Notes: generated by a model from the sequence alone, not told the origin. A stretch of 64,000 nucleotides of DNA from an uncultured delta proteobacterium (GCA_963733195.1 CAVTCR010000078.1:1-64000); one strand, 5' to 3'. Counted from the stretch's first letter, positions 1-30,233 are shown. Program-made: numbers and translations.

Positions 1-776
1 AAATCAAACCCCAATTGTGTTGCCCGGCTACTCACCGGAAGTGGTCGGGGATTTCTCGCCTTCACTGGACAAAATTCCTGGAAGTCACAGCTTGCACACC
101 ACGCCCCCTCGTGGGGGTGAAACGTTTGCTCACGGCCGATGTCGCGACATAAAGCTCTGACGCGAGATTGAGCGGCCTCTAGTTTGTCAGCCTCCACCGT
201 TTCTTTCTGCCCAGGGCGTAGGTAGTAAAATGACAATTTCTTTGCCGTCTTTCCTGTGGTCGCATGAAAGCCGAGTTGGTAGACGTCCAATTGCAAAGGG
301 TCAGGAGCAATCACATTACGCTGCGCTAGTTTGTAATCGATAATCTCAAAGCCGTCTGGCGTGTCGTCCACTCGATCAATGCGCCCAGTCAGCGCAAACG
401 GCCCCACATGTAACGTGAACTTTTCTTCTAACAGATAGGGCGTGGGGAAGCGTCCGCGATGCGCTTCCCAATAGCGGGTGAGCAACTGACGACCTTCTTG
501 ATATTGTTGGTCAGTCAGCGGACGGGTGGGATTGTCATAATAGCCCTTTAAATGTGCCAGTAAGCTCTCCAGTGAAACAGCAGAACCAGGAAAGAGCCCA
601 GGATGGTCGGCTGGCTGTTGTTTTAACCCTTGATGAAAGAGATGTAACGCGCCGTGTAACGCACGTGACGATTGCGCCGCGGGTCGTGGCCGGGTTGGTA
701 ACCCACGATTATACCGCACGTGATAGCGAAAGTGGCACTGTTGAAACGTTTTGAGGGCGGTGTACGAAAGCTTCAT
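1..776 (-). CDS. PD-(D/E)XK RecB/AddB/Cas4-like nuclease with Fe-S cysteines (runs off window edge)
   Basis: Not in ORF track because there is no stop in the window. Manual translation from ATG 776: MKLSYTALKTFQQCHFRY...LTGRIDRVD...FEIIDYK...LQLDVYQL...WCASCDFQEFCP. ATGA overlap with the upstream ArsR stop. Confidence 0.85.
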   Translation of the reverse strand, partial: MKLSYTALKTFQQCHFRYHVRYNRGLPTRPRPAAQSSRALHGALHLFHQGLKQQPADHPGLFPGSAVSLESLLAHLKGYYDNPTRPLTDQQYQEGRQLLTRYWEAHRGRFPTPYLLEEKFTLHVGPFALTGRIDRVDDTPDGFEIIDYKLAQRNVIAPDPLQLDVYQLGFHATTGKTAKKLSFYYLRPGQKETVEADKLEAAQSRVRALCRDIGREQTFHPHEGAWCASCDFQEFCPVKARNPRPLPVSSRATQLGFD

Positions 777-1159
777 CCCTCTCCCCTCCTGCGGTTACCG
801 TGCTCGTCGTCGTTGTTGCCCATCGGTGGGTTGAGTTCGTCAATCTGCGCAGCTAGTCGGTCATGAAGACTATTACAGACAACCTCACATAAGGCAAAGA
901 TGGTTTCGTCTGCAATCTCATAGTACACATTGAGCCCATCTTTACGGCGGCGGACTAAGCCAGCGAGTTGCAGGATCCCTAAATGCTTAGACACGTTCGC
1001 TTGTAAGGCACTCGTGGCTGCAACAATCCCACCGACCGTTAGCTCCCCATCCCATAATGAATGGAGAATCTTGAGCCGCATCGGTTCGGCAAGGAGCTTG
1101 AAACGCTCGGCAATCATTGCCAAGGCGGCATCGGAAAGTTCTCGTTTCTGGCGCGGCAT
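773..1159 (-). CDS. ArsR/SmtB family transcriptional repressor, probably sulfur-responsive
   Basis: FKLLAEPMRLKIL...QANVSKHLGIL...VYYEI wHTH; LCEVVC in helix 5; divergent from the sulfur operon. Confidence 0.9.
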   Translation of the reverse strand: MPRQKRELSDAALAMIAERFKLLAEPMRLKILHSLWDGELTVGGIVAATSALQANVSKHLGILQLAGLVRRRKDGLNVYYEIADETIFALCEVVCNSLHDRLAAQIDELNPPMGNNDDEHGNRRRGEG

Positions 1160-1168
1160 GAATCTTCC

Positions 1169-1204
1169 TTGACATTAGTTAACTATATTGCTAAATGGTA
1201 ATAT
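1169..1204. promoter_or_regulatory. Putative divergent promoter / ArsR operator
   Basis: TTGACA at 1169-1174 and imperfect palindrome ATATT-N10-AATAT at 1185-1204 between the divergent genes. Confidence 0.4.
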
Positions 1205-1380
1205 GATCATAACAGAGAATATGCTTGCTCGCAAGGGAGACTAAATCGAACCACAGAACCTTGGTACACTTCGCGTAGCGCGCGATGTGCGCGTGACCCC
1301 TCAGCCACCGCCATTCGTGCGCATGGCGCACGCTACCAGAGAGAAAGTGAGGGCCAGGCAGTCGCAATGAAAGAAACTCT

Positions 1381-1812
1381 ATGGAAAACTTCACTCCGAT
1401 CGCTTCGCTGTGTGGAGGTATGTTGATCGGCCTGAGTGCGTCGCTCCTCTTGCTGTGTAACGGCAAGATCGCGGGCATTAGTGGTATCGTGGGAGGGCTC
1501 CTTAGCCCCACACAGAATGACACGGCTTGGCGTGTACTGTTCGTTGTCGGTCTCCTTACTGGCGGACTCCTCTTTAGTCTCTTCTCTCCGCAAGTCTTCA
1601 CCTTCAGTATTGCACGCTCGACTGGCGCACTGGTTCTCGCCGGTCTTCTGGTTGGCTTTGGCACTCGCCTTGGCAACGGCTGTACTAGCGGCCATGGCGT
1701 CTGCGGCATGAGCCGTTTCTCGGTACGCTCCATTGTCGCCACAGTCACGTTCATGATTACAGGAATCGTCACCGTGTACATCATCAATCACCTGTTGGGA
1801 GGATCACTATGA
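1381..1812 (+). CDS. YeeE/YedE family sulfur-carrier membrane protein (PmpA-like)
   Basis: [10 protein letters not shown] and [27 protein letters not shown] motifs; hydrophobic helices. Confidence 0.92.
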
Positions 1813-2309
1813 ACTCAGCACTCGCGGCATTTGTTGCAGGTCTGATTTTTGCCATTGGTCTTGCGATAAGCGGCATGACCCAACCCGGAAAAGTGACCGC
1901 CTTTCTCGATATTTTTGGCAACTGGGATCCAAGTCTGGCAGTTGTCATGATGGGGGCAATCGCGGTGCATGCGGTTCTTTATCGTGTGATTCGCCAACGT
2001 TCGACACCACTCTTTGCCCCAACGTTTGCTATCCCAACACGGAGTGACTTTGATCTTCGTTTGCTGGGCGGAGCTGCGCTTTTCGGCGTTGGGTGGGGAG
2101 TAGGAGGCTTCTGCCCTGGACCAGCAGTTACGTCACTTGCTTCGGGACAATCGTCAGTCCTGGTCTTCGTCGTGGCAATGCTCATCGGAATGTTTCTTCA
2201 CCGGCTTGTGGACAAAACCCGAGGACAGCCCGTGTTAACTCCATCGCAGCACGAGTCACACCTAGTTTCCCCAACCACTCCAGCGTTCCAGAGCCCACAA
2301 GACGCCTGA
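1809..2309 (+). CDS. YeeE/YedE family (DUF6691, PmpB-like) membrane protein
   Basis: [21 protein letters not shown] and [11 protein letters not shown] motifs; ATGA overlap with the preceding gene. Confidence 0.9.
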
Positions 2310-2360
2310 ACAATGGGAACTGACTCGCGCATTAGTCAGATATACATATAAGGAGGGTCT

Positions 2361-3400
2361 ATGCTGTTTCGCGAACTCAACCGTGGCAAATGTAAAACCT
2401 ATCTCATCGCTTGTGAGCATACGAAGAAAGCTGCCTTGATCGATCCTCTCAAAGACAAAGTCGAACGCTACCTCGCCTCTCTTGCTTATTTCGGCTGTGA
2501 GCTGGAGGCTATCATCGATACCCACACACATGCAGATCATCGCACCGCAGGTTGGGAACTGCATGATATCACCGGGGCACCGGTCATGATGCATCGTCGC
2601 GCTCCAGCTCCGCATGTTGATATCCACGTCGAAGATGGACAGATGATTCCAATTGGCAATGAGCGAATCCGCGTCTTTTATACTCCCGGTCATACGCCGG
2701 ATAGCATCAGCCTGCATGCTGCCAATCGTGTGCTTACCGGCGATACGTTGTTGATTCACGGTACCGGACGCTGTGATTTTGCTGGTGGTGATGCTGGAGA
2801 ACAGTATGATTCAATTATTCACAAATTGTTTTCCCTTCCCGACGAAACATTGGTGTTTCCTGCTCATGACTATCGTGGGCACCTGAACTCGACAATCGGT
2901 GAAGAGAAACGGACGAACCCTCGTGTCGCAAGGCGAACACGCGAGGCCTACATCCACTTAATGAACAACCTTGGGCTCCCGCTTCCCCAAGGGATTCAGG
3001 AATCGCTCCAGCCCAATCAGTCAGCCATCGAAGACGAGTCAGTCCATTTCCCAACTCTGGCGGAACTGAACAGCGTACGGCAACTGACCGCCCAGGAAGT
3101 ACACTCACAGCTTGCCGGGCCGCAGCGTCCCTACTGCTTCTCGATGTCCGCGAAACAGACGAGTTTAGTGGCGACCTTGGACACATTGCAGGAAGCGTAC
3201 TGATTCCTCTGAAAGAGTTGCCGACGCGAGCAAAAGAAATTGACGCGTATAAAGAAAAGGATGTGGTTGTCATCTGCCGCGCGGGGGTACGAAGTACTAC
3301 GGCTGCAGCGATTCTTACCGGTCTGGGCTTCGAACATGTCTCCAATCTAAAAGGCGGCATGCTCGACTGGAATGATCAGCAATTGCCGGTGGAACGGTAG
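2361..3400 (+). CDS. Persulfide dioxygenase (ETHE1-like MBL fold)-rhodanese fusion; frameshift near 3130
   Basis: HTHADH, PGHT, TGD, PAHDY motifs. A second frame continues LLLDVRE..GHIAGS..CRAGVRS..NLKGGMLDW (rhodanese). Confidence 0.88.
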
Positions 3401-3412
3401 GACCTGAGGGCA

Positions 3413-3500
3413 ATGAAGAATTAAGAGTGAAGAGTGAAGAATGCAAAATGAAATTTACTCCGATCATTCTTCACTTTTCACTTTTCACTCTTCATTCTTG
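3413..3500. repeat. Inverted heptamer tandem array (GAGTGAA / TTCACT[T/C])
   Basis: Purine-rich arm aagagtgaagagtgaagaatg followed by complementary arm cattcttcacttttcacttttcactcttcatt. Confidence 0.75.
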
Positions 3501-3547
3501 CTAAGGTCTTCCTATGACTGAGCCAACAGAAACTCAAGTGAGCAGCA

Positions 3548-5050
3548 GTGCAATGGGCGAAAGTAATCGACCACACCAAATGCATCGGCTGTCATGCGTG
3601 CAGTACGGCGTGTAAATCCGAAAATCAGGTTCCACTGGGGGTTAATCGCACCTACGTAAAGTATGTCGATGTTGGTACGTTTCCGCAGGTACGACGCGCG
3701 TTCCAGGTCACTCGTTGTAACCAATGTGAAGATTCTCCGTGCACCGAAATTTGTCCGACTAAGGCGATGCATGCTCGTCCTGATGGCATCGTCGACTTCG
3801 ATAAATCAATTTGTATCGGCTGCAAAGCTTGTATTGCCGCGTGTCCGTATGACGCCATTTTTATCAATCCTGAAGATCACTCCGCCGAGAAATGCAATTT
3901 CTGTGCGCATCGGCTCGACATCGGGTTGGAACCCGCCTGTGTCATTGTCTGCCCGACCGAGGCCATTCTGGTCGGAAACTTGAACGATCCGTCCTCAGCT
4001 GTCGCACAAGTAGTCGGGCGCCATCCGGTCGCCGTTCGCCGTCCAGAAAAGGCAACGTATCCAAAGCTTTTCTATCGTGGTGCGCATCAGGCAACCCTTG
4101 ACCCCATCGCGGCTCAACGACCTGAAGGCGGCATGTTTATGTGGAGTGAGCAAGGGAATGTTTCTCATCAACTCACTTCCGGTCATCCACTCGGTGGCAA
4201 TACCTCAGCCGCCGCCGTCCTCGCCTACGACGTCCCACATCGTACTCCATGGGATTGGCGTCTCAGTCTGTACACGTGGACCAAGGGGATCGCTGCTGGG
4301 GCGTATCTAGTTCCTGCACTGCTTGTGTTATGCGGTATGCTGTCGTCGACAAGCCCTCTGTGGCAGTGGGGAGCTCCGGTCGTTGCCGGAATCTTTCTCG
4401 CGCTCACCGGGCTAATCTTAATTGCTGACCTCGAACACCCGAAGCGTTTTTATTATCTCTTTACCCGTCCACAGATAAAGAGTTGGCTCGTGCGTGGCGC
4501 GGTAATTATCAGTCTCTACGCCTTCGTTCTCTTACTGCATTTTCTCGCCGGCTTTAGTACACAAGGAGCAGCGGTACGTAGTGCTTTGTTGTTTTTTGGT
4601 CTTCCACTGAGTGTGCTCACTGCTGTGTACACTGCGTATTTGTTTGCCCAAGCAACCGCGCGTGATCTCTGGCAGAATCCACTCCTCCCGTCTCATCTTT
4701 TCATGCAAGCCCTTCTGGCTGGCTCAGCTGCGCTTCTCCTAGGCGTCATGTGGGAGGAACCGACGAAAGGCTCAGCTCTCGCTTGGATACTGGGTATCGC
4801 CAGTCTGCTGCATTTGCTGATGGTCCTAAGTGAAGTGACATTGGCACATCCGACTGCGCATGCCCGCTTGGCGGTAGAAGAGATGATGCATGGGGCCTTT
4901 CGTTCCTATTTTTGGGCTGGGATCGGACTCGTAGCACTAGGCTTGACTGCGCCGTGGCTCGGCGGTCTTGTGGCGATCTTTGCTCTCGTTGGTCTCCTGG
5001 CCTATGAACATGCCTATGTGCAGGCCGGTCAGTCAGTCCCTCTGGCGTAA
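3548..5050 (+). CDS. 4x[4Fe-4S] ferredoxin (PsrB/NrfC-like) fused to NrfD/PsrC-type membrane anchor
   Basis: CIGCHACSTAC, CNQCEDSPC, CIGCKACIAAC, KCNFC motifs; C-terminal multi-TM domain with ADLEHPKRF..SWLVRG. Confidence 0.9.
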   Translation: MQWAKVIDHTKCIGCHACSTACKSENQVPLGVNRTYVKYVDVGTFPQVRRAFQVTRCNQCEDSPCTEICPTKAMHARPDGIVDFDKSICIGCKACIAACPYDAIFINPEDHSAEKCNFCAHRLDIGLEPACVIVCPTEAILVGNLNDPSSAVAQVVGRHPVAVRRPEKATYPKLFYRGAHQATLDPIAAQRPEGGMFMWSEQGNVSHQLTSGHPLGGNTSAAAVLAYDVPHRTPWDWRLSLYTWTKGIAAGAYLVPALLVLCGMLSSTSPLWQWGAPVVAGIFLALTGLILIADLEHPKRFYYLFTRPQIKSWLVRGAVIISLYAFVLLLHFLAGFSTQGAAVRSALLFFGLPLSVLTAVYTAYLFAQATARDLWQNPLLPSHLFMQALLAGSAALLLGVMWEEPTKGSALAWILGIASLLHLLMVLSEVTLAHPTAHARLAVEEMMHGAFRSYFWAGIGLVALGLTAPWLGGLVAIFALVGLLAYEHAYVQAGQSVPLA

Positions 5051-5062
5051 AGGAGTGACACT

Positions 5063-7979
5063 GTGAGTGAAACGAAAGCGACCGAACGCGTGACCGCACT
5101 ACGTGATAACGTCGAAGGGCGAGGAGAAACATTTCATCCCGGCCCGAGTCGCAGTCAGCTCGCAGCCTTTCCGCCGAAAGAACGCTGGGATGACTGGATT
5201 GAACTGGACTCCCGCGCCTGGCCGCAACGGCGTGAACGTCACTACATGTTAGTTCCAACGACGTGCTTTAATTGCGAATCTGCCTGCGGGTTGCTTGCCT
5301 ATGTAGACCGCGACACTTTGACCGTCCGCAAATTTGAAGGCAATCCACAGCATCCAGCGTCACGTGGTCGCAACTGTGCTAAAGGACCAGCGACCATCAA
5401 TCAAGTGAACGATCCCGATCGTATTCTTCATCCGCTTAAACGTGTCGGCAAGCGCGGCGAAGGACGTTGGGCGCAGGTATCATGGAATGAAGCCTTAACA
5501 GACATCGCCGGTCGCATTCGCACGGCAATCCAAGAAGGCCGCCCAAACGAGGTGATGTATCACGTTGGTCGTCCCGGCGAGGATGGCTATACTGAGCGGG
5601 TCCTCGCGGCCTGGGGTGTCGATGGGCATAATTCCCATACCAACATCTGCTCATCGAGTGGTCGTGCAGGATATCACTACTGGATGGGGTTGGACCGTCC
5701 GAGTCCGGACCATGCGAATGCAGACGTTATCCTGCTGATCAGCTCTCACCTCGAAGCCGGGCACTATTTCAATCCCCACGCTCAGCGCATTATCGAGGGT
5801 AAAAGTCAGGGCGCCAAACTGATCATCTTTGACGTACGGTTGTCGAATAGTGCAACACACGCTGATCACTGGATTTCTCCTTATCCTGGCAGCGAAGCCG
5901 CTATTCTTCTGGCGATCGCCAATTATTTGGTCCAGCACGATTTGTATAACCGCGAGTTCGTCCGTCGCTGGTGGAATTGGCAAGAATACCTGCAACAGGA
6001 ACATCCAGATCTTCCACTCATCTTCGAGAGTTTCACGCAGGTCCTCAACGATCTGTATCAAGAGTATACCTTTGCTTTTGCCGCTCAGGAATCTGGTGTG
6101 GACGCGCAGGTTATCGAAGAGATCGCTCGCCTGGTTAGTCGGGCAGGAACACGTCTCGCCACGCATACCTGGCGAAGTGCGACCGCTGGTAATCTTGGTG
6201 GTTGGCAAGTCTCACGTGCACTCTTTCTCTTGAATGCACTGCTTGGTGCCATCGCCACCGAAGGTGGCACCTATCCCAACGCGTGGAATAAATTTGTCCC
6301 GCGTCCTATCTACACTCCACCACATCCATCGCAGTGGAACACGTTGACGTGGCCAAGCGAGTACCCATTGGCGATGAACGAGCTGTCGTTCTTACTGCCA
6401 CACTTCCTCAAAGATGGACGTGGAAAGCTCGACGTGTACTTCACTCGCGTGTACAACCCGGTATGGACGAATCCCGATGGGTTTAACTGGGTCGAGGTGT
6501 TGAGTGATGAAAATATGATTGGTCTGCATGTCGCGCTGACGCCTACTTGGAGTGAGACCGCGTACTTTGCCGACTATGTCTTGCCAATGGGAGTGGGCAG
6601 CGAACGGCACGACATTCATTCCTATGAAACCCACGATTCCCAATGGCTTGGTTTTCGTCAGCCGGTGTTACGTGCCGCACGCGAACGCCAGGGCGAGCAG
6701 ATCACCGATACCCGGCAAGTAAATCCAGGTGAAGTGTGGGAAGAGAACGAGTTCTGGATTGAACTCTCCTGGCAGATCGACCCTGAAGGCACGCTCGGTA
6801 TTCGTAAATTTTTTGAGTCAAAGGAACATCCTGGAGAGAAACTCACCCTGGATGAATACTATGGCTTCATCTTTGCCAATTCAGTTCCAGGTCTTCCTGA
6901 GCGAGCAGCGAGTGAGAGGCTTACGCCGCTGGCCTACATGCGACGCTACGGAGCCTTTGAAGTGCAGAAAAACATCGGCACAGTGCACGAACAGCTAGTG
7001 CCACCATCAGAACTCGAAGACACCCATACCGATGGGATCGGGCGTGTCTTTACCCGTATCCCGAGGCCTGCAGAACCGAATATTGTTCCTTTGCCTACAC
7101 CGGATGGAGATGAAGATGGCCGGCGTCTCGTCGGGATTGAAGTCGACGGCAAAATCGTGCGCGGGTTTCCGACCCCTAGTGGACGACTAGAGTTTTACTC
7201 TAAAACGCTCAAGGATTGGGGATGGCCAGAGTATGCCCTGCCGACGTACATCAAGAGCCATATTCATCGTGACCACCTTGAGCCTGGACAGATGGTTTTG
7301 ATCCCAACGTTTCGCCTGCCTGTCCAGATCCACACCCGCAGTGCCAATGCCAAGTGGTTGGACGAGATTGCCCATACCAATCCGCTGTGGATGTACTCAC
7401 TTGATGCTGCCCGAATCGGAGTTCGCACCGGCGATTTAGTCCGTGTAGAAACCGAGATCGGCTACTTTGTCGTCAAAGCGTGGGTTACTGAGGGGATTCG
7501 CCCTGGTGTCGTGGCATGCAGCCATCATATGGGACGGTGGAAGCTCGAAGGAAGCGGGCAGCGACAACTGATGGCAACGGTTGGTCTGACTCACCAGGGA
7601 AGCCAGTGGAGCATGCGACGCAAGAAAGGAGTCGAAGCCTACGCGAGCACCGATGCTGACAGCCAACGGATTTGGTGGACGGATGCAGGCGTACATCAAA
7701 ATATCACTTTTCCTGTCCATCCAGACCCTATTTCTGGTATGCATTGTTGGCACCAAGCAGTGCGTGTCACCAAAGCGGAAACCAACGACCAGTATGGTGA
7801 TATTCATGTTGATACCGACAAATCCTGGTGCGGCGTACAAAAGATGGTTAAAGATGACACGTCCAGCGGAACAGGTCTCACCTGATGGCACCCGGCGCCC
7901 ATACTGGCTGTTACGTCCACTCAAGCCGTCACGAGAGGTGTATCGGTTGCCTGCTGATACTACGAAGAGAGAAATGTAA
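5063..7979 (+). CDS. Molybdopterin oxidoreductase catalytic subunit (Psr/Soe/Ttr-like, DMSO reductase superfamily); frameshift near 7825
   Basis: CFNCESAC...RNCAKG Fe-S motif, HTNICSS putative Cys Mo ligand, TPSGRLEF, IHTRS. C-terminus continues in frame 7653..7979. No twin-arginine leader. Confidence 0.9.
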
Positions 7980-8074
7980 AGCATGCTAAGGGTGCAGCTG
8001 CGACACACGACGATGAATCGCCACGCTCAAAAAACGAAGCTATATGGAAAGCACACCGAGACATGGATTTTTGC

Positions 8075-8152
8075 GTAAGAGCACCGTGGCGGGCGCAGCA
8101 CCGCCATACGGGTCTCCGCGGGTACAAGGTAGGGCAGGCTGTGCCTGCCCTC
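8075..8152. repeat. REP-like GTAG/GTAA palindromes
   Basis: gtagggcaggctgtgcctgccc hairpin and gtaagagcaccgtggcgg..ccgccatacgg. Confidence 0.55.
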
Positions 8153-8268
8153 ATCAATTGGCATTCCATACTTTGCTGTGCCACAGGTATAGGTAAACCA
8201 GGTTTCCCGGAGGCATTATCCCCTTCGTAAGTTCAGCCAGGAGCTGTAGCTCAGGGCAGTGGCGGCGC

Positions 8269-10071
8269 ATGTCATTCACACGGTATCTTCCCTTCCTTGA
8301 CCTCCGCACGTATCGCCTGAGTTCACTCCGACGCGACGTTCTTGCCAGTGCCTCCGTCATGTTCCTTGATATTCCGCAAGGTGTCGCGTATGCGATGATC
8401 GCTGGACTTCCACCGGCTATGGGACTGTACGCTGCTGCCATCCCCGCTATCGTTGGGGCGCTGTTTCGCAGTTCACGACACGTTGTGACTGGTCCCACCA
8501 ACGCACTCAGCCTACTTGTGGGCAGTGCCGTTGCTGCGTTCGCGGTCCAAGGTGGAATTTCACCGCTCGAAGTCGGGGTTACACTCGCCTTCATGGTCGG
8601 AGTAATGCAGTTTGCTGCTGGCCTCTTACGCCTTGATGCTGTCGCAGATTACATCTCACAACCAGTAGTCCGAGGCTACATCACCGGCGCAGCAGTCCTG
8701 ATCGCCGCCGGTCAGCTTGCCAATGTCACCGGCACCACAGGGGCGAGAGGCAACCTTGGCGATATCCTGAGCCATTGGATCACGACGCTCCCGCAGATAA
8801 ATCTTCTTGCGCTCACCTTCGCCATTGGGACCATCATCACTGTCATGGCGATTCGTCGATTCTCTCACCGCGTTCCAGGCTCGCTGGTGGCAATAATCGT
8901 GAGTATCGTGATCAGCAACCTTTTACACCTTCACGAACAGGGGCTCCACGTAGTTGCCGATCTTTCTCCGATCCCAGCAGGGTTTCCTCCTTTCACTCTA
9001 CCATCCCTTATCCACTGGGCAGTGCTCGTACCTGCAGCTGTCGCCTGTGCAGTGCTGTCTTTAGTGGAGTCAAGTTCCGTCGCGCGTGCACTTGCGGCAG
9101 GGAGCAGACAACGGCTCGATCTCGCAGCTGAGTTTACCGGTCAGGGACTCGCAAATGTGGCCGCGGCATTTTCTAGTGGCTATCCCGTCAGCGGGAGTTT
9201 GTCACGGTCAACTTTGAACCAGCAAGCAGGCGCAGAGAGTCGCGTATCCGCTCTATTTTGCGGACTGCTCATGATTATCGTACTCCTCTTTTTCGGACCG
9301 CTCGTTGCCCGTACTCCTATTGCTAGTCTTGCCGGCCTTCTCCTCGTCCTCGCCACTGATTTGATCGATCGTCAGCACATTCGCATGATCGTGAACGGAA
9401 CAAGAAGTGATCGAGCAGCGTTCGTCGCAACACTTGTGGGGACGTGGATTCTTCCGCTCGACAAAGCCATCTACCTTGGCGTGGCCATCAGTATTGTTTT
9501 ATTCTTGCAGCGTGCTCGCTTGCTCACCGTTCGTGAAATGATTATTGGCGAGAAAGGGCGGTTTCGTGAAATTGATCTCGACTTCCGAGAAGAACGACCG
9601 GCTTGCGCTTCTATCCGCATCCTGAACCTCACTGGACCACTATTTTTCGCCGTGGCTGGAGAGCTCGAATCAGCACTCGAACCTGCGGTGAATAACCCGG
9701 AAATTCGAGTGCTCATTCTGCGAGTGCGACAAGCGCAGGACTTCGACGTCACCACCGCGAATGTGCTGGATGCAACCGCTAAGAAACTCGCAACGGAAGG
9801 GCGGACGTTGCTCCTTCTTGGTCTCCGTCCTCCTGTGCTTGCCTTGTTGGAGCGTACTGGCATCGCTGCGCGCATCGGCACCGATAATCTTTTCCCAGCG
9901 CAATCCGGCTGGTTTACCGCGATGGAAGCCGCTCTCCACCGCGCGCTAACGCTTACCGGAGAGCACGCCTGTGGCAACCACTGCCCGTTCGTCGAATACG
10001 TGAGCACTCAAGAAGACTTTCGCGCGACGACAGAAATCTCGTCAAAAGCTATCTGGACCCCCGACTTGTGA
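8269..10071 (+). CDS. SulP family anion (sulfate) transporter with STAS domain
   Basis: IPQGVAYAMIAGLPP..GLY, GPTNA, SGSLSRS; STAS GPLFFA. Confidence 0.93.
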   Translation: MSFTRYLPFLDLRTYRLSSLRRDVLASASVMFLDIPQGVAYAMIAGLPPAMGLYAAAIPAIVGALFRSSRHVVTGPTNALSLLVGSAVAAFAVQGGISPLEVGVTLAFMVGVMQFAAGLLRLDAVADYISQPVVRGYITGAAVLIAAGQLANVTGTTGARGNLGDILSHWITTLPQINLLALTFAIGTIITVMAIRRFSHRVPGSLVAIIVSIVISNLLHLHEQGLHVVADLSPIPAGFPPFTLPSLIHWAVLVPAAVACAVLSLVESSSVARALAAGSRQRLDLAAEFTGQGLANVAAAFSSGYPVSGSLSRSTLNQQAGAESRVSALFCGLLMIIVLLFFGPLVARTPIASLAGLLLVLATDLIDRQHIRMIVNGTRSDRAAFVATLVGTWILPLDKAIYLGVAISIVLFLQRARLLTVREMIIGEKGRFREIDLDFREERPACASIRILNLTGPLFFAVAGELESALEPAVNNPEIRVLILRVRQAQDFDVTTANVLDATAKKLATEGRTLLLLGLRPPVLALLERTGIAARIGTDNLFPAQSGWFTAMEAALHRALTLTGEHACGNHCPFVEYVSTQEDFRATTEISSKAIWTPDL

Positions 10072-14143: not shown

Positions 14144-14503
14144 TCAGGATACCGCACCGTCCACTTCCATAACGAGTCGAATCCCTTCCCACACGCGGCG
14201 TAGCAGAGTCTGAGACAGAGCCCCGATCTTTTCGTGCAAATAGAGGCGATCAATTGTCTGAATCTGTGTGACATTCACGACACACGGTTTTGGCAGATTC
14301 GCTTCCCCTTTCCGGAGTCGCACATTTCCCGGCAACAGGGAATAACGTAGGTTCGAGGTGATCGCGACAACTACTACTGTATTGATATGACTGCGGTTAA
14401 ATCGATCATGTTGGAGAACGACAGCCGGACGACGTCCCCAAGGTTCTGAGCCTCGACCACTGAAAAAGGAAACCCAGTAAACGTCCCCCTGGTGGATCAC
14501 CAC
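14144..14503 (-). CDS. mazF: PemK/MazF family toxin
   Basis: QGDVYWV..GSEP.GRRPAVVLQ.D.FN..VVVAITSN..LPKPCVVNVTQI. Confidence 0.92.
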   Translation of the reverse strand: MVIHQGDVYWVSFFSGRGSEPWGRRPAVVLQHDRFNRSHINTVVVVAITSNLRYSLLPGNVRLRKGEANLPKPCVVNVTQIQTIDRLYLHEKIGALSQTLLRRVWEGIRLVMEVDGAVS

Positions 14504-14751
14504 TTCTCTTCGGTCCATGACCCTAACCGTAAGAACTCGTCTGCGGTGCGCTTTTGTTCTGCACTAATAGTTTTATCATCAAAGAGCGCATCAAGTTGTC
14601 GCGTTATATCTCGGTCTCGCTTGACTCGCGCAACCTTTGATAACAAGGTAGCAATGACGTGGCTCCGCGACTCACCTCGATGTTCTGCAAGCTGATCAAT
14701 TGTTTCAAGTACAGGTTCTGGGAGAGAAATTGCAATTTTCTTCATAGGCAT
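14497..14751 (-). CDS. Ribbon-helix-helix antitoxin
   Basis: MKKIAISLPE..IDQLA..SRS; overlaps the toxin start. Confidence 0.85.
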   Translation of the reverse strand: MPMKKIAISLPEPVLETIDQLAEHRGESRSHVIATLLSKVARVKRDRDITRQLDALFDDKTISAEQKRTADEFLRLGSWTEEKW

Positions 14752-14869
14752 GGCTAAGTCCCAATTCTGACGCAGGTCGAGCAATTCTTCGCTCATATCT
14801 TGGTATTCTATAATGTTCATACCAGGATAGTGTTCCTCGTCGCAAGCTACTACAGACTGTTCTGTTGTT

Positions 14870-14912: not shown

Positions 14913-16258
14913 TTAGAACTGCAACCCAAGAGACGGTAGCGGATCGCGGTCAACTACCGGAAGGCGACTGGCACCGGCGTGTACTTTCACAGTTCCCGGC
15001 GTGCGCTCGTACGGATCAGGCAGGCCGATCTCTTTGGCGTAGTCGCGCAGCGCAGGAGCGACTTCTTCGGCTAACAAGCGGACACACTTCAGGCGATCAT
15101 CGTTGCCCACTGGCCCTTGCACGTTAAAGAACATGAATATGCTCGGGCGCAAAATACGTAGTAGCATCTTTGCTCGTTCAATCACGGTCTTCGGAGAGCC
15201 AGCAAGAATCTGAAAGTTCTTCTGTGCCTTCACATAACTTGACGCGAGCTTCCTACGCACCTCGTTGTAATCAACTTCTTCTGGCTGTTCATCATATTGC
15301 GCTTGGCGTAGTTTCTCGGGGCTGACGCCGAGCCAACTTCCGCCTGGATGTTGAGCCAGCATCTTGATCGCACCTTTCGAGTTGTAACCCGGTGGCAACG
15401 TATGCTCAGGACGGGAAACTGCAGCTTTTGCCCACCACCGTGAGACAAAACCTTTGCCAAGTTCCTGGGCTTTCTCTTCTGTCTCGGCAACAAAAGTCGG
15501 CAATCAAATAACCGAAGTTTTCCGGTCCAGCTTGATAGCCAAGCTTGGCTGCTGTGTCAGCGTAGATGTCCCACAAATCGCACGTCGGACCAAGTGCGGT
15601 ACCCAGCCCAATGTATGGATAGCGATGCTCTGCGCACCAGCGCACGGTCTCCTGCGAACCCTCAACACGCCAGGAATCCAAATCGGTGGATGTGGTCTCT
15701 GATATGGCAACGCCCACGGATTTACATGGCGATAGTGAAAATGCTTGCCTTCATACCGCCACGGTCCGGGTTTGGTCCACGCTTGAACGATGAAGTCATG
15801 CGCTTCGTTGAAGTACTCGCGGTTGTACGAGGGATTCGCATTGTTAAAAAACTGCTCGCTGCCGGCACCGCGCACCCAACCTGTGACCAAACGCCCACGG
15901 GAGATCAAGTCGATCTCTGCCAGCTCTTCTGCCATGCGCAGGGGATGCTTAATCACTGGTAGTGGGTTGCCGATCGAGTACGATCTTCACGCGCTTTGTG
16001 AGACGGGCGAGGATTGAGGCTTCGACGTTCATTACCCCACCCCATGCAATATGGGTTACCGTGATGCTCGTTGAGAGCAACGACATCAAAACCTTTCTCT
16101 TCGGCGTAGCAGTACTCATCAAGATAATAATTATAATCGTCAGCAGCCTTGTCGCGGTCGAAGTGCGAGTTGGACAGGGCAAAGAACGCATGGTTCTTGA
16201 GTACCTCGTCCTCTGGCACCCAACGATACGGCCGCTCGGTGAAGTAGCCGATTTTCAT
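14913..16258 (-). CDS. LLM class flavin-dependent oxidoreductase (several frameshifts)
   Basis: Fragments join as MKIGYFTERPY..GFDVVALNEHH / AEELAEIDLISRGRL..PHPPIWIPG / ..VRLLAEEVAPALR. Confidence 0.85.
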
Positions 16259-20030: not shown

Positions 20031-21671
20031 GCGCGCTCGCCATCCGCGCTCAAAGAGAGTTCCATGCTGTCCCGGCTTCGGCGGCGCCTTGGGCAGGTTC
20101 TCGACCTTCAGGCTGTAGTCGTCATGGCCCCATTCGCAGCGGGAGAGCACCTCCTTGGGAATCTTCTTCACCGTCAGATTCGGATACCGTCCGCCTTCGG
20201 CCGCGAAAGGCGGAGCAGAGCACCAGCAGTGTACGGTTCGTCGCCCACCTCATCGCTCAGCTGCTGGAGCTGCTCGTGGCTCAGGTTCGGCGTCGTGACG
20301 TAGATGAAGTCGCGCTCGGTCGAATGGCCGTGCTGCCAGTAGACCGTGTCGCTCGGCGCGTAGGTGAAGCCCTCCAGCTTGCACACCGCCTCGGCCAGCA
20401 TGGCGGCGTTGTAATTCCTTGTTGATAACCCAGTTGCCCCACTTGTCCTTCTCCAGCAGCGACGGCGCAAGCCGGTAGTAGCGGAACCCGCCGCCGCCTT
20501 TCCAGCCCACGGCTTCCGTGATGCCGCCTGGGTCTTCGCCGTCGATCACCTTCTTGAGCCGCGGAATGATGTGCGTGTGGCAATGCTCGCCCAGCTCGAC
20601 CATGATCCAGCGCCGGCCCATCTTGTGGGCAACCGCGCCGGTCGTGCCGGAGCCAGCGAAGGAGTCGAGAACGAGGTCGCCGGGGTTGGTGGCGATCTGA
20701 ATGATACGCTGCAACAAGCCGTTCGGGCTTCGGCGTCGCAAACAGTCTCGATGTCCGGCGACAAATTGCTTTAATTTCATGCTTCGCTTCCTCGATTGTG
20801 ACCGACTTCCTCGTGCGACCACACGTTCGAGGCACGACGCCTTCTGAACATCGCTGAGATAGCGCTTAATGATCGGAACCCGTTGCCGTCTTTCCCCACT
20901 AGATGCGCTCCGTCTTGCAGCAAGCTCTTAAAGTCTGCTTCGAGAAACGTCCAATATCGTCCTGCTGGCGGTCTGAACTGCTCGCCCAGATGGCACAGTG
21001 ATCGGATATATCTGCTCTCGGTGCGGTACTTGCGGCCGTACAGATCACCCTGCCTTCCAGGGGCCACGCGGATCATTGTCCGGGTTCTTGTAATCTTGCG
21101 TTCTGTTTCTCGTTCTCGGCAGAAGATTGTCAATCTGCCACTTCGCTCGAATCCTTTGCATAGCACGACAATGTAGTCATGCATCGTCGGAAAGTGAATT
21201 CGCCGAATTCTTCGCGCGTAATACCTTTTGCCAGACACACTGTAGCAACGAAGTTTGCTTCCGAATACTTCATCCACAAGACCTCAAATAGTGGCATCTC
21301 GTTGTCATCGATAGTGATCCAGAGCGATCCATCGTCCGACAAGCAGCGTCGGAGAACTCAAGCCTGTCGCGCATCAGCGTCAGCCAGAGAGAATGCTCCA
21401 TTCCATCGTCGTAATGCTCGAACGCACTGCCAGTGTTATACGGCGGGTCGATGAAGATGCACTTAATCTTGCCCGCGAACTCCTGCTCCAGCGCCTTGAG
21501 GGCGAGAAGGTTATCGCCAAAGATGAGCCGGTTATCGAAGATGTCGCTATCGGTGACTCGATGCGGGGCGTGATAGGACCTCTCCGGGTCTTCCAGCAGG
21601 ATGCGCGGCTCCAGCCTGGGCCGGTTCTCCTTACCAATCCAAGTCAGTTCGAGTTTTTGCTTCTTCGTCAT
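20027..21671 (-). CDS. mod: Type III N6-adenine DNA methyltransferase Mod subunit (frameshifted)
   Basis: KQKLELTWIGK, GDNLLALK, IDPPYNTG, TPKPERL, DSFAGSGTT; stop overlaps the res ATG. Confidence 0.88.
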
Positions 21672-23232: not shown

Positions 23233-26093
23233 TTATCCTTCCTCAAGTCGCCACCGAATGGCCAGGAGTGACTCTAACCGGGTTGTCTGTGCTAGCTTCC
23301 CTTCAATATCCACGATTAACTGCTCGCGCTGCCGATCAATCTCGTCCTGCGCATCAAAGAGCGCCCGACGCTTGCCGTTGCGCTGTGATTCCAACGCCTT
23401 GATCTGCTTCTGACCCGCTAGCTTCTCCTCCAATGTCGGCGCGAGCGTAGCGGCCCGTTTCGCTTCCTTAACTTGCCGGTCAATGTCTTTGATCTCGCGT
23501 TCAAGCGCCACCTTCAGGTCATCAGCCCAGCGATCGAGTTTCTCGGCTTCAAGCTCGAAGAAGTTGGCGTTTCGTTCTGAAATGTTGCGCTGAATAGCGG
23601 CTTTTCGTTGCTCTACCAGTTCCTTCAACTCATCGTGGGAGATTACGTCCGCGAGCGGTGTCGTTGATGTCGCCGGGAGGGAAAGGAGTCGCCGCGCGGC
23701 GTCCTCTTCGAGTATCCATCCTTCCCTTGTGCTGACCGCCAACAGCAAATGATCCTCCGTCTGATTCAGAGATTCCACCATTAACAGGCTTAGGAGAAGC
23801 TCGCCACTTTGTCCAATGTAGGGCTCCAGGGCGCTGATTCTTGGCCCATAACTAGAGTAATCGAAAGTGAGCTCGGCCGGAGACAGCACGCGAGACTTGG
23901 CTTGCCGCAAGACCTGTTCGGCTAACGGGTGCCCAAGCCGGTAGAGGTGCGCTTCCCCGGAACGACGCGGCAGCTCGTATCGTCCTAATGGAATATCACC
24001 GGGGAAAGGGCAGGACTTCAGCCAAAAGGCAGACCCGTCAACGAGTTCCGCATGGTCTCGCAACTCGTAGCGAGTCAGGTCCATCAGCATTCGCTCGTAG
24101 CGATTCAGGTAGGTCTGGCTGTTCTCCAAGTTGATGCGTAACTTTTCGTGGACTTCCGTATCGAAGTTTTCCAGCAACTGTTGGCGGGTACGGGTTATGG
24201 CTTCGTCAATCTGTTGGCTTAATTCCCGCTGGAGTCATCAAAGGCGGCATTGATCTCTTCAGGTTTGCGACAGCGTTGATAAATGTCTGCGATCCGTTTC
24301 TCGAAGTCTACCCCCGACTCGACCGCACCGAGCACTTCATCACTCGCGCCAAAGACGCCTTCAAACAGGGAGAATTTTTCCGAGAGCAGTTGAAAGACGC
24401 GCTGATCGGCAGCGTTTGTCTGATTGAAAAAATTGACCACCACGACATCATGCTTCTGTCCATAGCGATGACAACGCCCGATCCGTTGCTCAATGCGTTG
24501 CGGATTCCAGGGCAGATCGTAGTTCACCACCAGAGAGCAGAACTGGAGGTTGATGCCTTCTGCTCCTGCTTCCGTGGCAATCATGATGTGCCCTTGCTCA
24601 CGGAAGTAATCGACCAGGGCCGAGCGCATGTCAGCCGTGCGGGAACCGGTCACGCGATCCGTGCCCTCATGCCGTCGCACCCAGTCAGTGTAGATCTTAC
24701 GCGATTGTGTGTCGGTATTGGAGCCGTTGAACAGCACGATACCTTCGGAGTACGGACTTTCGGCCAGCACTCGTAGCAAATACTCCTGCGTACGGCGGGA
24801 TTCCGTGAAGATGATGGCTTTGCGTGCAGCACCCAGACGCTCAGCCTCGGCGAAGGCACGATCAAGGGCGATGAGTAACGCCTGGCCCTTGGCATTGTGG
24901 GTGATCGAGACGGCGAGGGTACGGAACGCTTCGAGATCGGCAATTTCTTTTTCGAGAGCGACACGGTCAGCCTCGGAGAGCGGCTCAGGTTCAGAGTGTC
25001 TCTTCTGGCCATTCCTCTGCTGTTTCGTCGAGAGCTTCGTAGTCTTGGTCTAGCTCTTCTTCAAGCGATTGCTTCGGTTGGCGTTTTCCAAGCCGAGCCT
25101 GAAGACGCTGACTGATAGTGTCGAGCGCTCCGGCAATAGCGAAGGTGGAGGATGCGAGGAGCTTGCGCAGCACCAAGGTCATGAGCGAACGCTGACTCGC
25201 AGGCAGCGCTTGCAGGTTATCACGCCGCAGATACTCGGAGACGAGGTGATAGAGCCGGTCTTCACTTTCTTCGGGGGTAAAGGATTGCACGAGGGGATGA
25301 CGACGGGTGTAGGGCACGTAGGCTGTCACTTGTCGCCGGAGAGTGCGATGACAAACGGGTTTGATCCTGGCCTTTAGCGTATCGAAGACGTGCTTGTTGT
25401 TGAGAGTGGTAAACTGCTCGCGAAAGCTCTTGAGATCCCCGAAGGCATACTCGTCGATGAAGCTGACCAAACCGAAGAGTTCCAGCAATGAGTTTTGCAG
25501 GGGCGTGGCAGTGAGCAGCAGTTTCGGGACATCCTTGAGGGCGTGTTTGAGAGTGTTAGCGATCACGTTATTCGGCTTGTACACATTGCGCAGCCGGTGC
25601 GCTTCATCAATCACCACTAAATCCCATCGATCGCGTTGACATCAGCCGCCTTGCTGCGAGCGAACTGGTAAGAACAGATGACGATCGTGTCCGTGGTCTC
25701 GAAAGGCCGGAAGTTCCCGTGTTTGACTGCCTCGTTGTAAAAACGAGTCTCCAAAATTGTACACGGTAGAAAGAACTTCTCCTGCAGCTCTTGATGCCAT
25801 TGTTTACGCAGGTTGGCAGGGGTGATGATCAGAATCCGCCGTTTCCGTTCCGCCCACTTCTGCGAGATAACAAGTCCAGCTTCAATGGTTTTGCCGAGCC
25901 CGACTTCATCTGCCAGTAACGCACCTTTCGAGAGGGGAGAGTTGAAGGCAAACAGCGCAGCTTCGACTTGATGTGGGTTGAGATCAACCTTGGCATCCAC
26001 CAACGCCCCGGCCAGTTTTTCGAGACTGTCTGACGAGCACCGCTTCGTCAGTTCATACGCGAAGTATTTTGCTTGATAGTCGGTTAAGTTCAT
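23233..26093 (-). CDS. SNF2/RapA-like helicase-ATPase associated with type III RM (frameshifted)
   Basis: LADEVGLGKT, DEAH, TATP, TEAGAEGINLQ, YDLPWNPQRIEQRIGRCHR; coiled-coil C-terminus. Confidence 0.92.
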
Positions 26094-26207
26094 CACGACC
26101 ACACAAAAATCTCACAAATGGCAATAGGTGAAACCCTCACCTGAATGAACAGCAGCTCTAAATCTATGGAGAGATTGAGCAATCCCGATTTCCCCCCTTA
26201 AATAGAA

Positions 26208-27476: not shown

Positions 27477-28157
27477 CTATGTTTTGCTAATCTCGCGTAG
27501 ACAATCAACAATGGCCTGTGGTTCTAAACGGTGAGTGTAGTCGGCATCAACAAACGCTAAACGAACAGTTCCATCCTTGGCAACGACAAAAGTGCCCGGC
27601 ATCGGCAACTCCCACGATTCATCGCCATTGTAAGCTGGAAGGTCAGCACCGATGTTTTTGTAAATTGGGCGGAGGATTTCGGCGACTGGAAATACGAGTT
27701 TGAACTGCCGCGCTACTTTGTTGCCTGCATCACTGAGCACGTCAAACGTGAGATGATCTTTCTCTGTCGTTGCCACGGTTTTCTCTGGTTGCTCTGGAGT
27801 GATCGCGACAATCGACGCTCCTAATGCTTGCATCTCAGGCAGTCTCGTTTGGTACGCCTGCAACTGCAGGTTGCAGTACGGTCACCATCCACCGCGATAG
27901 AAAGTGACAACCGCAGGTCCCTTTTTGAGGACCTCGGAGAACGTGACGCGCTCCCCACGCGTATTGGCCAGCGTAAAGTCAGGAGCCTTCTCACCAACAT
28001 GGAGGCTGCGCTCGGCAATGCCAGAACGAACAAGTTCTGTCGTCGTTTTCTCGAAGGTCTCAAGGATCTCTTTGGGAATCTTTGGCAGCAAATCTTTTTG
28101 AAACGCACTGATCTGTTCTTGCAATTCAGTGCTCAAGCTGTGACTTTGCGTGCTCAT
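27477..28157 (-). CDS. AhpC/TSA peroxiredoxin-like selenoprotein (UxxC)
   Basis: Two track ORFs are one frame separated only by TGA at 27882-27884: FYRGGW-U-PYCNLQL. Homologous family has W-C-P-Y-C here. Confidence 0.88.
27852..27879 (-). promoter_or_regulatory. Putative bacterial SECIS hairpin
   Basis: Immediately 3' of the UGA: GUAC-UGCAAC-CUGCA-GUUGCA-GGC-GUAC stem-loop. Confidence 0.6.
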
Positions 28158-28255: not shown

Positions 28256-28720
28256 TCAAATGTGATACATAGAAGCCGATGCCGCTCTGCGCTGGCTCTG
28301 CGCTGCGCGACGGCTCATATCGACCAAAGAAACTTGTTCAAGCACAGCAGTCACACCGCTATCGACCTCTGCCATAACTCCACGTAACCAGCAACTCTCC
28401 AACGATACACAGTCTGGACATTTCGTTGGAGCTACAGGGCTCAAGCAAGGAAGTGCCGTAAGCGGTCCATCCACTGCACGAATGACATCCCCCAGGGAAA
28501 CATCCGCCGGAGCCATGCTCAGACTATATCCGCCGGTTTTTCCACGGCTGCTCTGCAGAATCCCAGCTTTCTTGAGCGCCAAGAGGACTTGCTCAAGAAA
28601 TTTCTTGGGAATGCGCTCCCTCTGGGCAAGTTCTTGAATCGACATCATCGCCGGTGCCCCTGGAGATCCTAATCTCGTGAGAGCGCGGAGTGCGTATTCG
28701 CATTTCTTTGAGAGTTTCAT
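28256..28720 (-). CDS. Rrf2 family transcriptional regulator (Cys-rich)
   Basis: [41 protein letters not shown]; C-x8-C-x2-C-x5-C. Confidence 0.93.
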
Positions 28721-29480
28721 GTTGTGCCGTGAGCTCGGGGAACCACTGGAGGTGTTCTCGCAACGCGACTACCTCTCCTATAACCGTTACGACCGGCGGT
28801 TCAAGGCCAGCCGCAGTCGCCTTGGCAATAATATCAGCCAGGGTTCCAGTCACTGTCTGTTGCTCGCTAGTTGTTCCCCAACGAATGAGTGCAGCCGGTG
28901 TCTCTGGCGAACGTCCATGAGCAAGGAGCTGACCGACAATCTTGGCTAACCCTTTCACGCCCATCAGGACCACTAAGGTATCAACAGCAGTCGCAAGCGC
29001 GGCCCAGTCTCTCGTTGAAACGTCTTTGCCGCCTTCTTCATGCCCGGTCACTACCGCAAAAGAGGACGCAACTTTTCTGTGGGTCACTGGAATGCCAGCA
29101 TAGGCGGGAACCGCAAGCGCAGAACTGACACCTGGAACAATTTCGAAGGGAATACCTGCATCAACAAGCGCTTTGGCTTCCTCACCGCCACGACCAAAGA
29201 CAAAGGGATCTCCACCTTTCAGGCGTACTACTCGACGACCTTGACGAGCGTATGTCACCAGCAGCTCATTGATTTGCTCCTGCGGCACATAGTGCAGCCC
29301 AGTTTCTTTCCCGACGTAGATCCGAATTGCTTCGGGTGGGGCTTCTTGGACGATCTCGGGGTGAACAAGACGGTCGTAGATAACTACTTCAGCCTGTTGG
29401 ACAAGTTTCAACCCTCGCACAGTGATGAGTCCTGGATCGCCTGGTCCTGCACCAATCAAATAGACGGTTGGGAATGTCAT
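28593..29480 (-). CDS. cobA: Uroporphyrinogen-III C-methyltransferase
   Basis: [34 protein letters not shown]. The true end is probably near 28717; the tail overlaps Rrf2. Confidence 0.95.
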
Positions 29481-30109: not shown

Positions 30110-30171
30110 AACAAGGAAAACCTACGATGCATCTTTACTTTAGGCTCTTGACTCTGCCGGCGTGAAAAGGA

Positions 30172-30216
30172 TATTAACTCAGTAAATCTTTAATGTCTAT
30201 AGACTTAGTAGTTTTA
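30172..30216. promoter_or_regulatory. Putative Rrf2 operator in the divergent sirC/cysI promoter
   Basis: AT-rich imperfect palindrome aatgtctatagacttagtagtttt, resembling Rrf2-type boxes. Confidence 0.35.
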
Positions 30217-30233
30217 AAGAAAAAGGATTTTCT

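Follow-up and report, generated by a model that had tools for sequence, protein, structure and literature searches.

Which reaction is catalysed by a molybdoenzyme whose genes follow those for sulfur import and persulfide oxidation, and on which side of the membrane would it take place? The question is raised by a 64,000-nucleotide stretch of DNA from an uncultured delta proteobacterium (GCA_963733195.1 CAVTCR010000078.1:1-64000), called the window throughout, which represents contig C78 of a 6.95 Mb genome (87 contigs, 93% complete, 4.5% contamination). Open reading frame (ORF) calls combined with Pfam and NCBIfam matches placed six co-oriented coding regions and, ahead of them, a divergent gene of the ArsR family at positions 773-10071. 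Somewhat better than even chances are given here to the molybdenum (Mo) enzyme facing inward and acting as a sulfite:quinone oxidoreductase in a pathway with YedE1E2, a persulfide dioxygenase (PDO) and SulP. The enzyme belongs to a family that is widespread and already described, and the window holds a fairly ordinary member. The locus as a whole is best explained as two modules, each of a known type, that have been combined under a regulator of the ArsR family.

Predicted orientation of the molybdoenzyme and the module upstream of it

The gene of the Mo-containing subunit starts 12 nt after the gene of a ferredoxin-NrfD fusion, which comprises a four-cluster ferredoxin (residues ~1-200) and an NrfD/PsrC-type quinone-binding anchor (~230-500) and has no signal peptide. 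The ferredoxin domain lies N-terminal to the first membrane helix. Seven to eight segments within residues 247-484 were returned by a crude hydropathy scan, which merges some segments and scores two false ones inside the ferredoxin domain. Basic residues concentrate before the first helix and in the loop 294-317, both predicted to face inward. The first 67 residues of the Mo subunit are hydrophilic, including a conserved 'FPPKERWDDW', and are followed by CxxCxxxC at residue 68; an RR pair with a hydrophobic stretch, as expected of a twin-arginine (Tat) leader, was found in these 67 residues neither in the window protein nor in its relative P0002. Because a Tat leader is missing from both proteins, the iron-sulfur (FeS) domain precedes the first helix and basic residues lie in inward loops, the prediction that the catalytic and FeS parts face the cytoplasm is supported, in agreement with the first-pass annotation of this DNA. 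In a HMMER alignment Cys196 of the Mo subunit, in the context N-I-C-S-S-S, lined up with a cysteine of PsrA and of ArrA, which we take to be the Mo ligands of these enzymes. Cys196 is thus the predicted Mo ligand.

Database models did not assign the subunit to a characterised enzyme. All NCBIfam equivalog scores stayed below their cut-offs (PhsA 198 vs 694 bits, TtrA 104 vs 1750, ArrA 115 vs 1600, DmsA/YnfE 172 vs 778 and Fdh-alpha 147 vs 666), and the best solved relatives, Thermus PsrA (8e-33) and ArrA (4e-32), are distant. A SoeA model was absent from the 23 NCBIfam matches of the subunit, no SoeA or SoeB name occurred among 360 listed homologues, cluster and Atlas entries bore uninformative or generic names, and a search of the plasmid collection gave no SoeA-labelled record.

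The left half of the operon begins with two adjoining half-size PF04143-type membrane proteins that have a conserved cysteine each (in a GNGCTSGHG context in YedE1), which fits the definition of YedE1E2. Their genes overlap by 4 nt, suggesting translational coupling. In Cupriavidus a split YedE1E2 has been found to import zero-valent sulfur and to feed PDO, and split YedE1/YedE2 pairs beside pdo genes and ArsR regulators are a known arrangement (PMC10812762). The metallo-beta-lactamase (MBL) protein encoded next found its best Protein Data Bank (PDB) matches among PDOs, namely 4ysb (3.9e-55), the PDO-rhodanese fusion BpPRF (5ve3, 5e-41) and human ETHE1 (4chl, 1e-38). The PDO matches ranged from 4e-55 to 2e-35 and those to glyoxalase II (GloB) from 1e-18 to 1e-9. 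An HxHxDH metal motif (THTHADH) is present, and the rhodanese domain carries a CRAGVRS catalytic Cys loop. Judged by these matches, the protein is an ETHE1-type PDO, nearer to characterised PDOs than to glyoxalase II. Both the PDB relatives of the PDO and the precedent in PMC10812762 uphold the earlier view that sulfane-sulfur import and persulfide oxidation are encoded together here.

The divergent regulator gene is part of the unit. Its product scored 79 bits with the NCBIfam model HTH_metalloreg (cut-off 55), matched BigR in the PDB (3pqj) at an E-value of only 8e-7, and has an orthologue of 73% identity in the same position of locus L010. We regard it as a candidate sulfur-responsive repressor. 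At the other end the unit stops at the SulP gene, because the next gene is a convergent aminotransferase gene. The six gene types named in the first-pass annotation were thus all present, in one direction and where it had placed them (Table 1), with two genes interrupted in the assembly.

Table 1. Features of the operon and of its regulator gene, in window coordinates.
Feature	Position	Strand	Evidence or remark
ArsR/SmtB-family helix-turn-helix (HTH) regulator	773-1159	-	Pfam HTH_5 2.2e-10
YedE1-type half-size sulfur-transport membrane protein, 143 aa	1381-1812	+	PF04143 1.3e-11
YedE2-type half-size partner, 166 aa	1809-2309	+	DUF6691 8e-46, PF04143 3.8e-07
ETHE1-type persulfide dioxygenase (by sequence matches) with one rhodanese domain	2361-3400	+	frame-interrupted; MBL ORF 2361-3203
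Intergenic hairpin with GAAGAGT-type heptamers	3401-3547	.	minimum free energy -47.1 kcal/mol
Ferredoxin-NrfD fusion, 500 aa	3548-5050	+	Fer4_11 1.9e-22, NrfD 1.2e-17
Catalytic subunit of the Mo-bis(pyranopterin guanine dinucleotide) (Mo-bisPGD) type	5063-7979 (called ORF 5063-7885, 940 aa)	+	Molybdop_Fe4S4, Molybdopterin, Molydop_binding
SulP-family anion permease with STAS domain	8269-10071	+	Sulfate_transp 5.7e-81, STAS 7e-14

Neighbourhood, family and published relatives of the molybdoenzyme

A neighbourhood survey was performed on the 80 best loci, which come from at least eight named phyla. Within 8 kb of the Mo gene, PDO-like genes occurred in 38 loci and PDO together with rhodanese in 32; SulP was found in 14, downstream of the Mo gene, ArsR-like genes in eight and a YedE pair in two. 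Forty-four loci have 6 kb or more of sequence to either side, and for these the counts were 21 for PDO, 17 for PDO with rhodanese and 11 for SulP. The YedE pair is kept in L006, from a metagenome-assembled genome (MAG) of the Binatia, and in L010, and these two loci repeat the full gene order of the window. In 71 of the 80 loci an NrfD-domain match preceded the Mo gene on its strand, within 400 nt in 46 of them and beyond inserted DNA in 25; six of the remaining nine were short of upstream sequence, and three (L045, L061 and L067) had room and no match. When Pfam was applied to 33 representatives from the 45 commonest neighbour clusters, the commonest proved to be a 466-aa protein with an MBL and two rhodanese domains (31 loci), followed by a NarJ/TorD-like chaperone (23), DUF445 (21), DUF2807 (12), SulP (11) and Usp (9), with a single rhodanese (7), DsrE_2 (3) and TauE (3) being rarer. 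SulP directly follows the module in four of five same-family loci, at 70-71% identity. Since a search of the window's own genome gave only three PDO-like matches in 6.95 Mb, adjacency of PDO by chance should be rare. The survey thus supports a linkage of the Mo module to sulfur genes far beyond chance across phyla; the linkage proposed earlier is recurrent for PDO, rhodanese and SulP, and the YedE pair takes part in it at 2 of 80 loci.

Beyond these loci, an even sample of the class to which locus L079 belongs contained the module in 159 of 401 genomes. Among 30 loci fetched from this class, the fused gene was located upstream in all 29 that reach far enough, once across a gap of 4.5 kb; L114 ends at a contig edge and displays the NrfD part only. 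SulP stood ~1 kb downstream in 16 of the 30. A canonical soeABC operon was sought in the same class and the fused form alone was found, a result that covers this class and makes no statement on Gammaproteobacteria.

Intact modules were also found in cultured organisms. On the megaplasmid of Thermomicrobium roseum DSM 5159 the module (61% identity) lies beside a gene for a 'metal-sensitive transcriptional regulator', presumably of the CsoR/CstR type. Plasmid pRHL3 of Rhodococcus jostii RHA1, a genetically tractable strain, carries it (58%) beside ArsR, three MBL genes, DsrE, TusA and an Mrp/NBP35 ATPase, with TusA and DsrE directly upstream. Natrinema and other haloarchaea have it at 51-53% identity. 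More distant relatives on Sulfurovum (38%) and Azoarcus (34%) plasmids have separate B and C genes. The practical value of the survey lies in these named carriers (RHA1 with pRHL3, the T. roseum megaplasmid and Natrinema), and in RHA1 the function is open to a direct test; the window itself adds little, being one more, damaged, copy. As a separate observation, a gene for an Mrp/NBP35-family ATPase overlaps the end of the Mo gene in L106 (RHA1 pRHL3) and L119 (Natrinema halophilum plasmid), and its product may be a dedicated Fe-S cluster delivery factor.

The family is large. A protein search gave at least 8000 significant relatives (8000 of 8000 scored candidates), the best 120 of which are 73-100% identical and 921-986 aa long. 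Conservation is 60-85% identity across at least eight named phyla, and the source labels comprise Acidobacteriota/Pyrinomonadaceae, Armatimonadota, Binatia, Thermodesulfobacteriota, Gemmatimonadota, Chloroflexota, Actinomycetota, Myxococcota and Dormibacterota. With one genome per species there were at least 600 pattern matches, at least 599 of them confirmed by tblastn. Clustering at 50% left few representatives: the nearest full-length ones were 58, 47, 46, 45 and 43% identical, and after them came Tat-bearing Psr/Phs-like proteins at 33-37%. In this respect the clade behaves like the cytoplasmic Cys-ligand bSreA/SoeA lineage, whose 1,354 hits nearly vanish at 50% clustering (Wells et al. 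2023, PMC10100899). With the 45%-identical representative P0122 as the query, nothing beyond the same clade came back. When the FeS domain was used to look for split SoeB-like relatives, the best 120 short matches were mostly fragments from short contigs or labelled partial.

After six garbled or partial rows had been removed, a quick IQ-TREE was calculated from 36 rows, made up of seven clade members, four named proteins from plasmids and 25 of the 31 representatives that reach 700 aa. It separated 21 rows, among them the window clade, T. roseum, R. jostii and Natrinema, from a group of 15 by a branch of 1.19 (SH-aLRT 100). The Tat motif is present in 13 of the 15 rows of this nearest Psr/Phs-like group, one member of which is labelled PsrA/PhsA by IMG, and in 3 of the 21 rows of the window group, where 17 other Tat-less rows stand beside the window protein. 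The three exceptions, P0125, P0150 and P0194, have clear twin-arginine leaders and keep the N-terminal motif of the clade, 'YPPFE.W..W', so exported versions of this enzyme type exist. The periplasmic PsrABC/PhsABC complexes (Thermus 2vpw, Wolinella, Salmonella) share the superfamily fold, the Cys ligand, the four-cluster FeS protein and the NrfD anchor. Unlike the window enzyme they are Tat-exported, have catalytic subunits of ~750 aa and consist of separate subunits in A-B-C order; they lie across the long branch, with ~37% identity to the window clade in the N-terminal half.

The first-pass annotation had presented the Mo enzyme as belonging to an uncharacterised clade. The clade itself had already been recognised: the same layout, with a Tat-less catalytic subunit, a psrBC fusion and the order BC-then-A, has been published under the names PSRLC3 (Frigaard & Bryant 2008 and Gregersen 2011, as cited) and psrBC-psrA, together with a proposal of cytoplasmic sulfite oxidation (PMC3906813, PMC9324843 and PMC6338057). 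Wright et al. 2013 describe Tat-less PsrA homologues with psrBCA order in green sulfur bacteria, Marine Group A and II, Caldilinea, Chloroflexus aggregans and Haladaptatus, and cite Gregersen 2011 for the proposal that the cytoplasmic complex of green sulfur bacteria oxidises sulfite (PMC3906813). Elsewhere PSRLC3 is treated as an inferred or alternative sulfite-oxidising system (PMC9324843, PMC6338057). The occurrence of PSRLC3 in Chloroflexi and haloarchaea matches the hits of the window family; the probable kinship is drawn from architecture and distribution. PSRLC3 stands beside Dsr genes in an anaerobic phototroph, whereas the window module is accompanied by YedE1E2, PDO-rhodanese and SulP in a probable aerobe.

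SoeABC, a cytoplasm-facing sulfite:quinone oxidoreductase of Allochromatium vinosum and Aquifex aeolicus (Dahl 2013 and Boughanemi 2020, as cited in PMC8076601), is the other system to be compared. Genes of this type are universal in purple and green sulfur bacteria according to a review that repeats Dahl et al. 2013 (PMC8232776). Calisto and Pereira 2021 (PMC8076601) report SoeC from Proteobacteria, Clostridia and Aquificae alone and a CT0494-type NrfD group from Actinobacteria, Chlorobi, Chloroflexi, Crenarchaeota and Deltaproteobacteria. The complex of the window is like SoeABC in being, by prediction, a cytoplasm-facing assembly of a Mo-bisPGD subunit, a 4x4Fe-4S protein and NrfD. The layout differs: SoeABC consists of three separate subunits in the order A-B-C, whereas B and C form one protein upstream of A in the window. 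With ~109 kDa, SoeA is similar in size to the catalytic subunit of the window. We take CT0494-0496 to be PSRLC3 and, with the taxon distribution as a second ground, the window family to be probably CT0494-type. A Cys ligand and a cytoplasmic location, both predicted for the window enzyme, are listed for SoeA (PMC10100899).

The left half of the operon has published counterparts of its own. The BigR/ArsR yedE1-yedE2-pdo (blh) operons of Agrobacterium, Xylella and Acinetobacter baumannii contain the same unit of ArsR, split YedE and PDO-rhodanese, and the Staphylococcus aureus cst operon is of the same kind (PMC10812762, PMC7315123). These operons stop at sulfite or thiosulfate with an exporter of the TauE type and lack a respiratory molybdoenzyme, whereas in the window a Mo enzyme and SulP follow. 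The window regulator also differs from that of the BigR-controlled operons in scoring below the BigR cut-off.

Substrate and direction of the reaction

In the scheme that we favour, YedE1E2 would import zero-valent sulfur, a thiol persulfide would be formed, and PDO would oxidise it with O2 to sulfite, while the rhodanese domain would shuttle sulfane sulfur or make thiosulfate. The Mo enzyme, as a PSRLC3-type and SoeABC-like complex, would oxidise cytoplasmic sulfite to sulfate at its Cys-ligated Mo-bisPGD, two electrons would travel along five 4Fe-4S clusters and reduce quinone in the NrfD domain, and SulP would move the anion product out. The sequences show the genes and their domains, the absence of export signals, the cysteine at the ligand position and the conservation and recurrent surroundings of the two-gene Mo module. 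The substrate, the direction, the coupling to quinone, the role of SulP and the signal of the regulator are what we infer, and sulfate export through SulP, which the first-pass annotation had counted among the encoded functions, falls back to this level. The SulP-STAS protein scored 308 bits with TIGR00815, below the cut-off of 380. The oxidative direction is favoured because PDO needs O2 and the cultured hosts (T. roseum, R. jostii and Natrinema) are aerobes. If sulfite oxidation coupled to quinone reduction is the true function, the enzyme would serve many soil and marine bacteria as a respiratory sink for the sulfite of their cytoplasm, and the role of PSRLC3, an open point since 2008, would be settled.

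Several points weigh against this scheme. Members of the SulP family also import sulfate or carry other anions. The regulator reached 45 bits with the BigR model NF040642, whose cut-off is 155, and its only cysteines form a CxxxC near residue 91, which differs from what we take to be the sensing Cys pair of BigR and SqrR. In the class of L079 no PDO was detected within 7 kb at any of the 30 loci, so that the link to PDO depends on lineage. Presence of the module is uneven within the lineage of the window: it occurs in 12 of 30 relatives, 9 of 18 family genomes and neither of two congeners (one of them 100% complete). The CT0494-type NrfD group has been placed apart from SoeC and tentatively named formate:quinone oxidoreductase, FqoABC (PMC8076601). 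In the related bSreA/SoeA lineage, the Aquifex enzyme was originally isolated as a sulfur reductase (as cited in PMC4378227 and PMC10100899). No assay of the fused family was found in the literature searched, the supplements of which may hold more. Finally, the copy in the window would be inactive if its two frameshifts, described below, are real.

That the enzyme works in the opposite direction, as a cytoplasm-facing, quinol-dependent and bacterial Sre-like reductase of polysulfide, elemental sulfur, thiosulfate or tetrathionate that releases sulfide or thiosulfate inside the cell, appears unlikely. It is true that the best solved relative is the Thermus polysulfide/thiosulfate reductase subunit PsrA and the best NCBIfam model PhsA, and that neighbouring rhodanese, TusA and DsrE proteins deliver sulfane sulfur. 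Furthermore, bacterial SreA was grouped with SoeA by Wells et al. (PMC10100899), and Wright et al. take the same architecture in Marine Group A as a polysulfide reductase, 'PSR' (PMC3906813). Yet the PhsA score is far below its cut-off, and in the quick tree a long, fully supported branch lies between the clade and the Psr/Phs-like group with Tat leaders. An O2-dependent dioxygenase and anion permeases are encoded alongside the enzyme, its cultured hosts are aerobes, and a cytoplasmic production of sulfide beside a persulfide-detoxifying operon is hard to rationalise.

An oxidation of some other substrate, be it formate by a formate:quinone oxidoreductase or thiosulfate or carrier-bound sulfane sulfur directly, seems a shade less probable again. 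Formate is suggested by the assignment of the CT0494-type NrfD group to FqoABC (PMC8076601) and by one NCBI record that calls a clade member 'formate dehydrogenase'. However, a serine follows Cys196, where formate dehydrogenases have a histidine after their Sec or Cys ligand; the formate dehydrogenase model remained well below its cut-off, and the 33 scanned cluster representatives included no formate-related neighbour. The recurrent neighbours are sulfur genes. Another sulfur substrate gains from TusA and DsrE directly upstream of the module in RHA1 and from the 30 PDO-less loci in the class of L079. In this variant, which has similarly slender chances, the PSRLC3-type enzyme would oxidise thiosulfate or carrier-bound sulfane sulfur (from rhodanese, TusA or DsrE) with quinone as the acceptor and would not be a plain sulfite dehydrogenase. 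Such a reaction could explain both the modules without PDO and the anaerobic green sulfur bacteria, and if true it would provide an O2-independent cytoplasmic route parallel to PDO in many bacterial phyla and haloarchaea.

Interrupted frames, other sulfur genes and further features of the window

Two genes of the operon are not readable in a single frame. Compared with the dioxygenase, the rhodanese domain is encoded in the -1 frame, within the stop-to-stop ORF 2903-3400, and the break falls at ~3129-3133 between '...AGPQRP' and 'LLLLDVRE'. In all six relatives with the same PDO type (L006-L010 and L036), PDO and rhodanese share a single ORF of 340-346 aa. The tblastn starts of the two domains are 771 nt apart in the relatives (756 nt in L010) and 770 nt apart in the window. 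Of the PDO-rhodanese fusion claimed earlier, both domains and the single ORF of the relatives are therefore real, and the single frame in the window is not. In the Mo gene a +1 frameshift at ~7827-7829 ends the called ORF at 7885; the last ~47 residues are read in another frame up to 7979, and reading through would give ~971 aa. This C-terminal tail is kept in all five clade proteins inspected. The intact relatives P0002 (99% identity) and P0003 (95%) are both 971 aa long and run on as '...AAYKRWL...SPDGTRRPYWLLRPLKP...', the same tail that the window encodes in the other frame. A 282-nt metagenome contig of the soil-type run X5, ~96% alike and thus from a close relative, has one base fewer at 7827. 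Position 7827 was bridged by metagenome contigs this once, and 3131 by none among the pieces listed. Source reads were sought in public runs, none of which contained more than 0.16 of the sampled words of the stretch.

Breaks of this kind are not confined to the operon. A luciferase-like monooxygenase gene (14913-16258) contains an in-frame TGA at 15504 and is split into at least three pieces, the gene of an SNF2 helicase (24219-26102) is divided among three ORFs, and an MMPL gene (43652-47191) shows a tail that is off frame, besides a partial copy upstream. Further split or partial genes lie at 20250-20822, 27477-27863 and 54573-55382; those for a DNA methylase, AhpC and AlkZ are partial. So many split and partial genes suggest an indel-rich assembly or else widespread decay. 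Because unrelated genes of the window are broken too, assembly indels are the most probable cause of both frameshifts in the operon, and the organism probably carries intact PDO-rhodanese and Mo genes. The alternative is that the frameshifts are real mutations and the two genes pseudogenes in a decaying remnant. It can point to two independent single-base frameshifts within 5 kb, neither in an obvious long homopolymer, and to an accessory module that is patchily distributed among relatives and lacking in both congeners. Split genes of unrelated function across the window, however, fit an indel-rich assembly better than selective decay, and the frames are otherwise clean and 99% identical to an intact relative, which makes decay improbable.

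Whether the operon is a self-contained pathway, as the first-pass annotation had supposed, was answered by the rest of the genome. The 80 ORFs of the window indeed contain no Sox, Dsr, sHdr or sulfide:quinone oxidoreductase (SQR) gene by Pfam. However, one row on contig C27 (L136:5237-11224) encodes SoxY, SoxZ, a small cytochrome c, a flavoprotein of the flavocytochrome c sulfide dehydrogenase (FCSD) type and a SoxA/TsdA-like dihaem cytochrome. Genes for sulfide and thiosulfate oxidation are therefore present elsewhere, and the operon is not the organism's sole sulfur route. SoxB was not seen in 20 kb around this row. The operon parts occur in single copy in the genome, which also gave one SoxY match, two SUOX-fold matches and no DsrC match; DsrE, TusA and NarJ-like tblastn queries taken from other loci found nothing in it. 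The genome search for sqr that had been proposed was negative for a clear type I-VI SQR at 16 of 18 Pyr_redox_2 places and gave one weak match. This candidate (82 vs 525 bits) was rejected, as it is FCSD-type by Pfam. The Sox row on C27 adjoins a MoCoBD/2Fe-2S pair of the xanthine-dehydrogenase type.

The hairpin between the rhodanese and FeS-NrfD genes divides the two halves of the operon. By blastn, 38 more partial matches to it occur on the remaining contigs, and it is a genome-wide repeat, not particular to the operon. In four soil-type metagenome runs the element displayed very high contig depth and loose ends.

A second sulfite-handling locus lies ~20 kb from the operon. This assimilatory sulfate-reduction cluster (28593-34777) contains siroheme synthase parts, an NIR_SIR sulfite reductase (534 aa), a PAPS reductase, a TauE/SafE permease and a cysteine synthase-like PALP enzyme (CysK). 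At 61521-63715 a second ArsR-family regulator stands with a glyoxalase-fold protein and an SBF/ACR3-like permease, in what looks like an arsenic-resistance unit. A MazF/PemK toxin with a ribbon-helix-helix (RHH) antitoxin is encoded at 14144-14820, directly downstream of a major facilitator superfamily (MFS) gene, and at the left end of the window a PD-(D/E)XK/Cas4-like nuclease gene (3-776) adjoins the ArsR gene.

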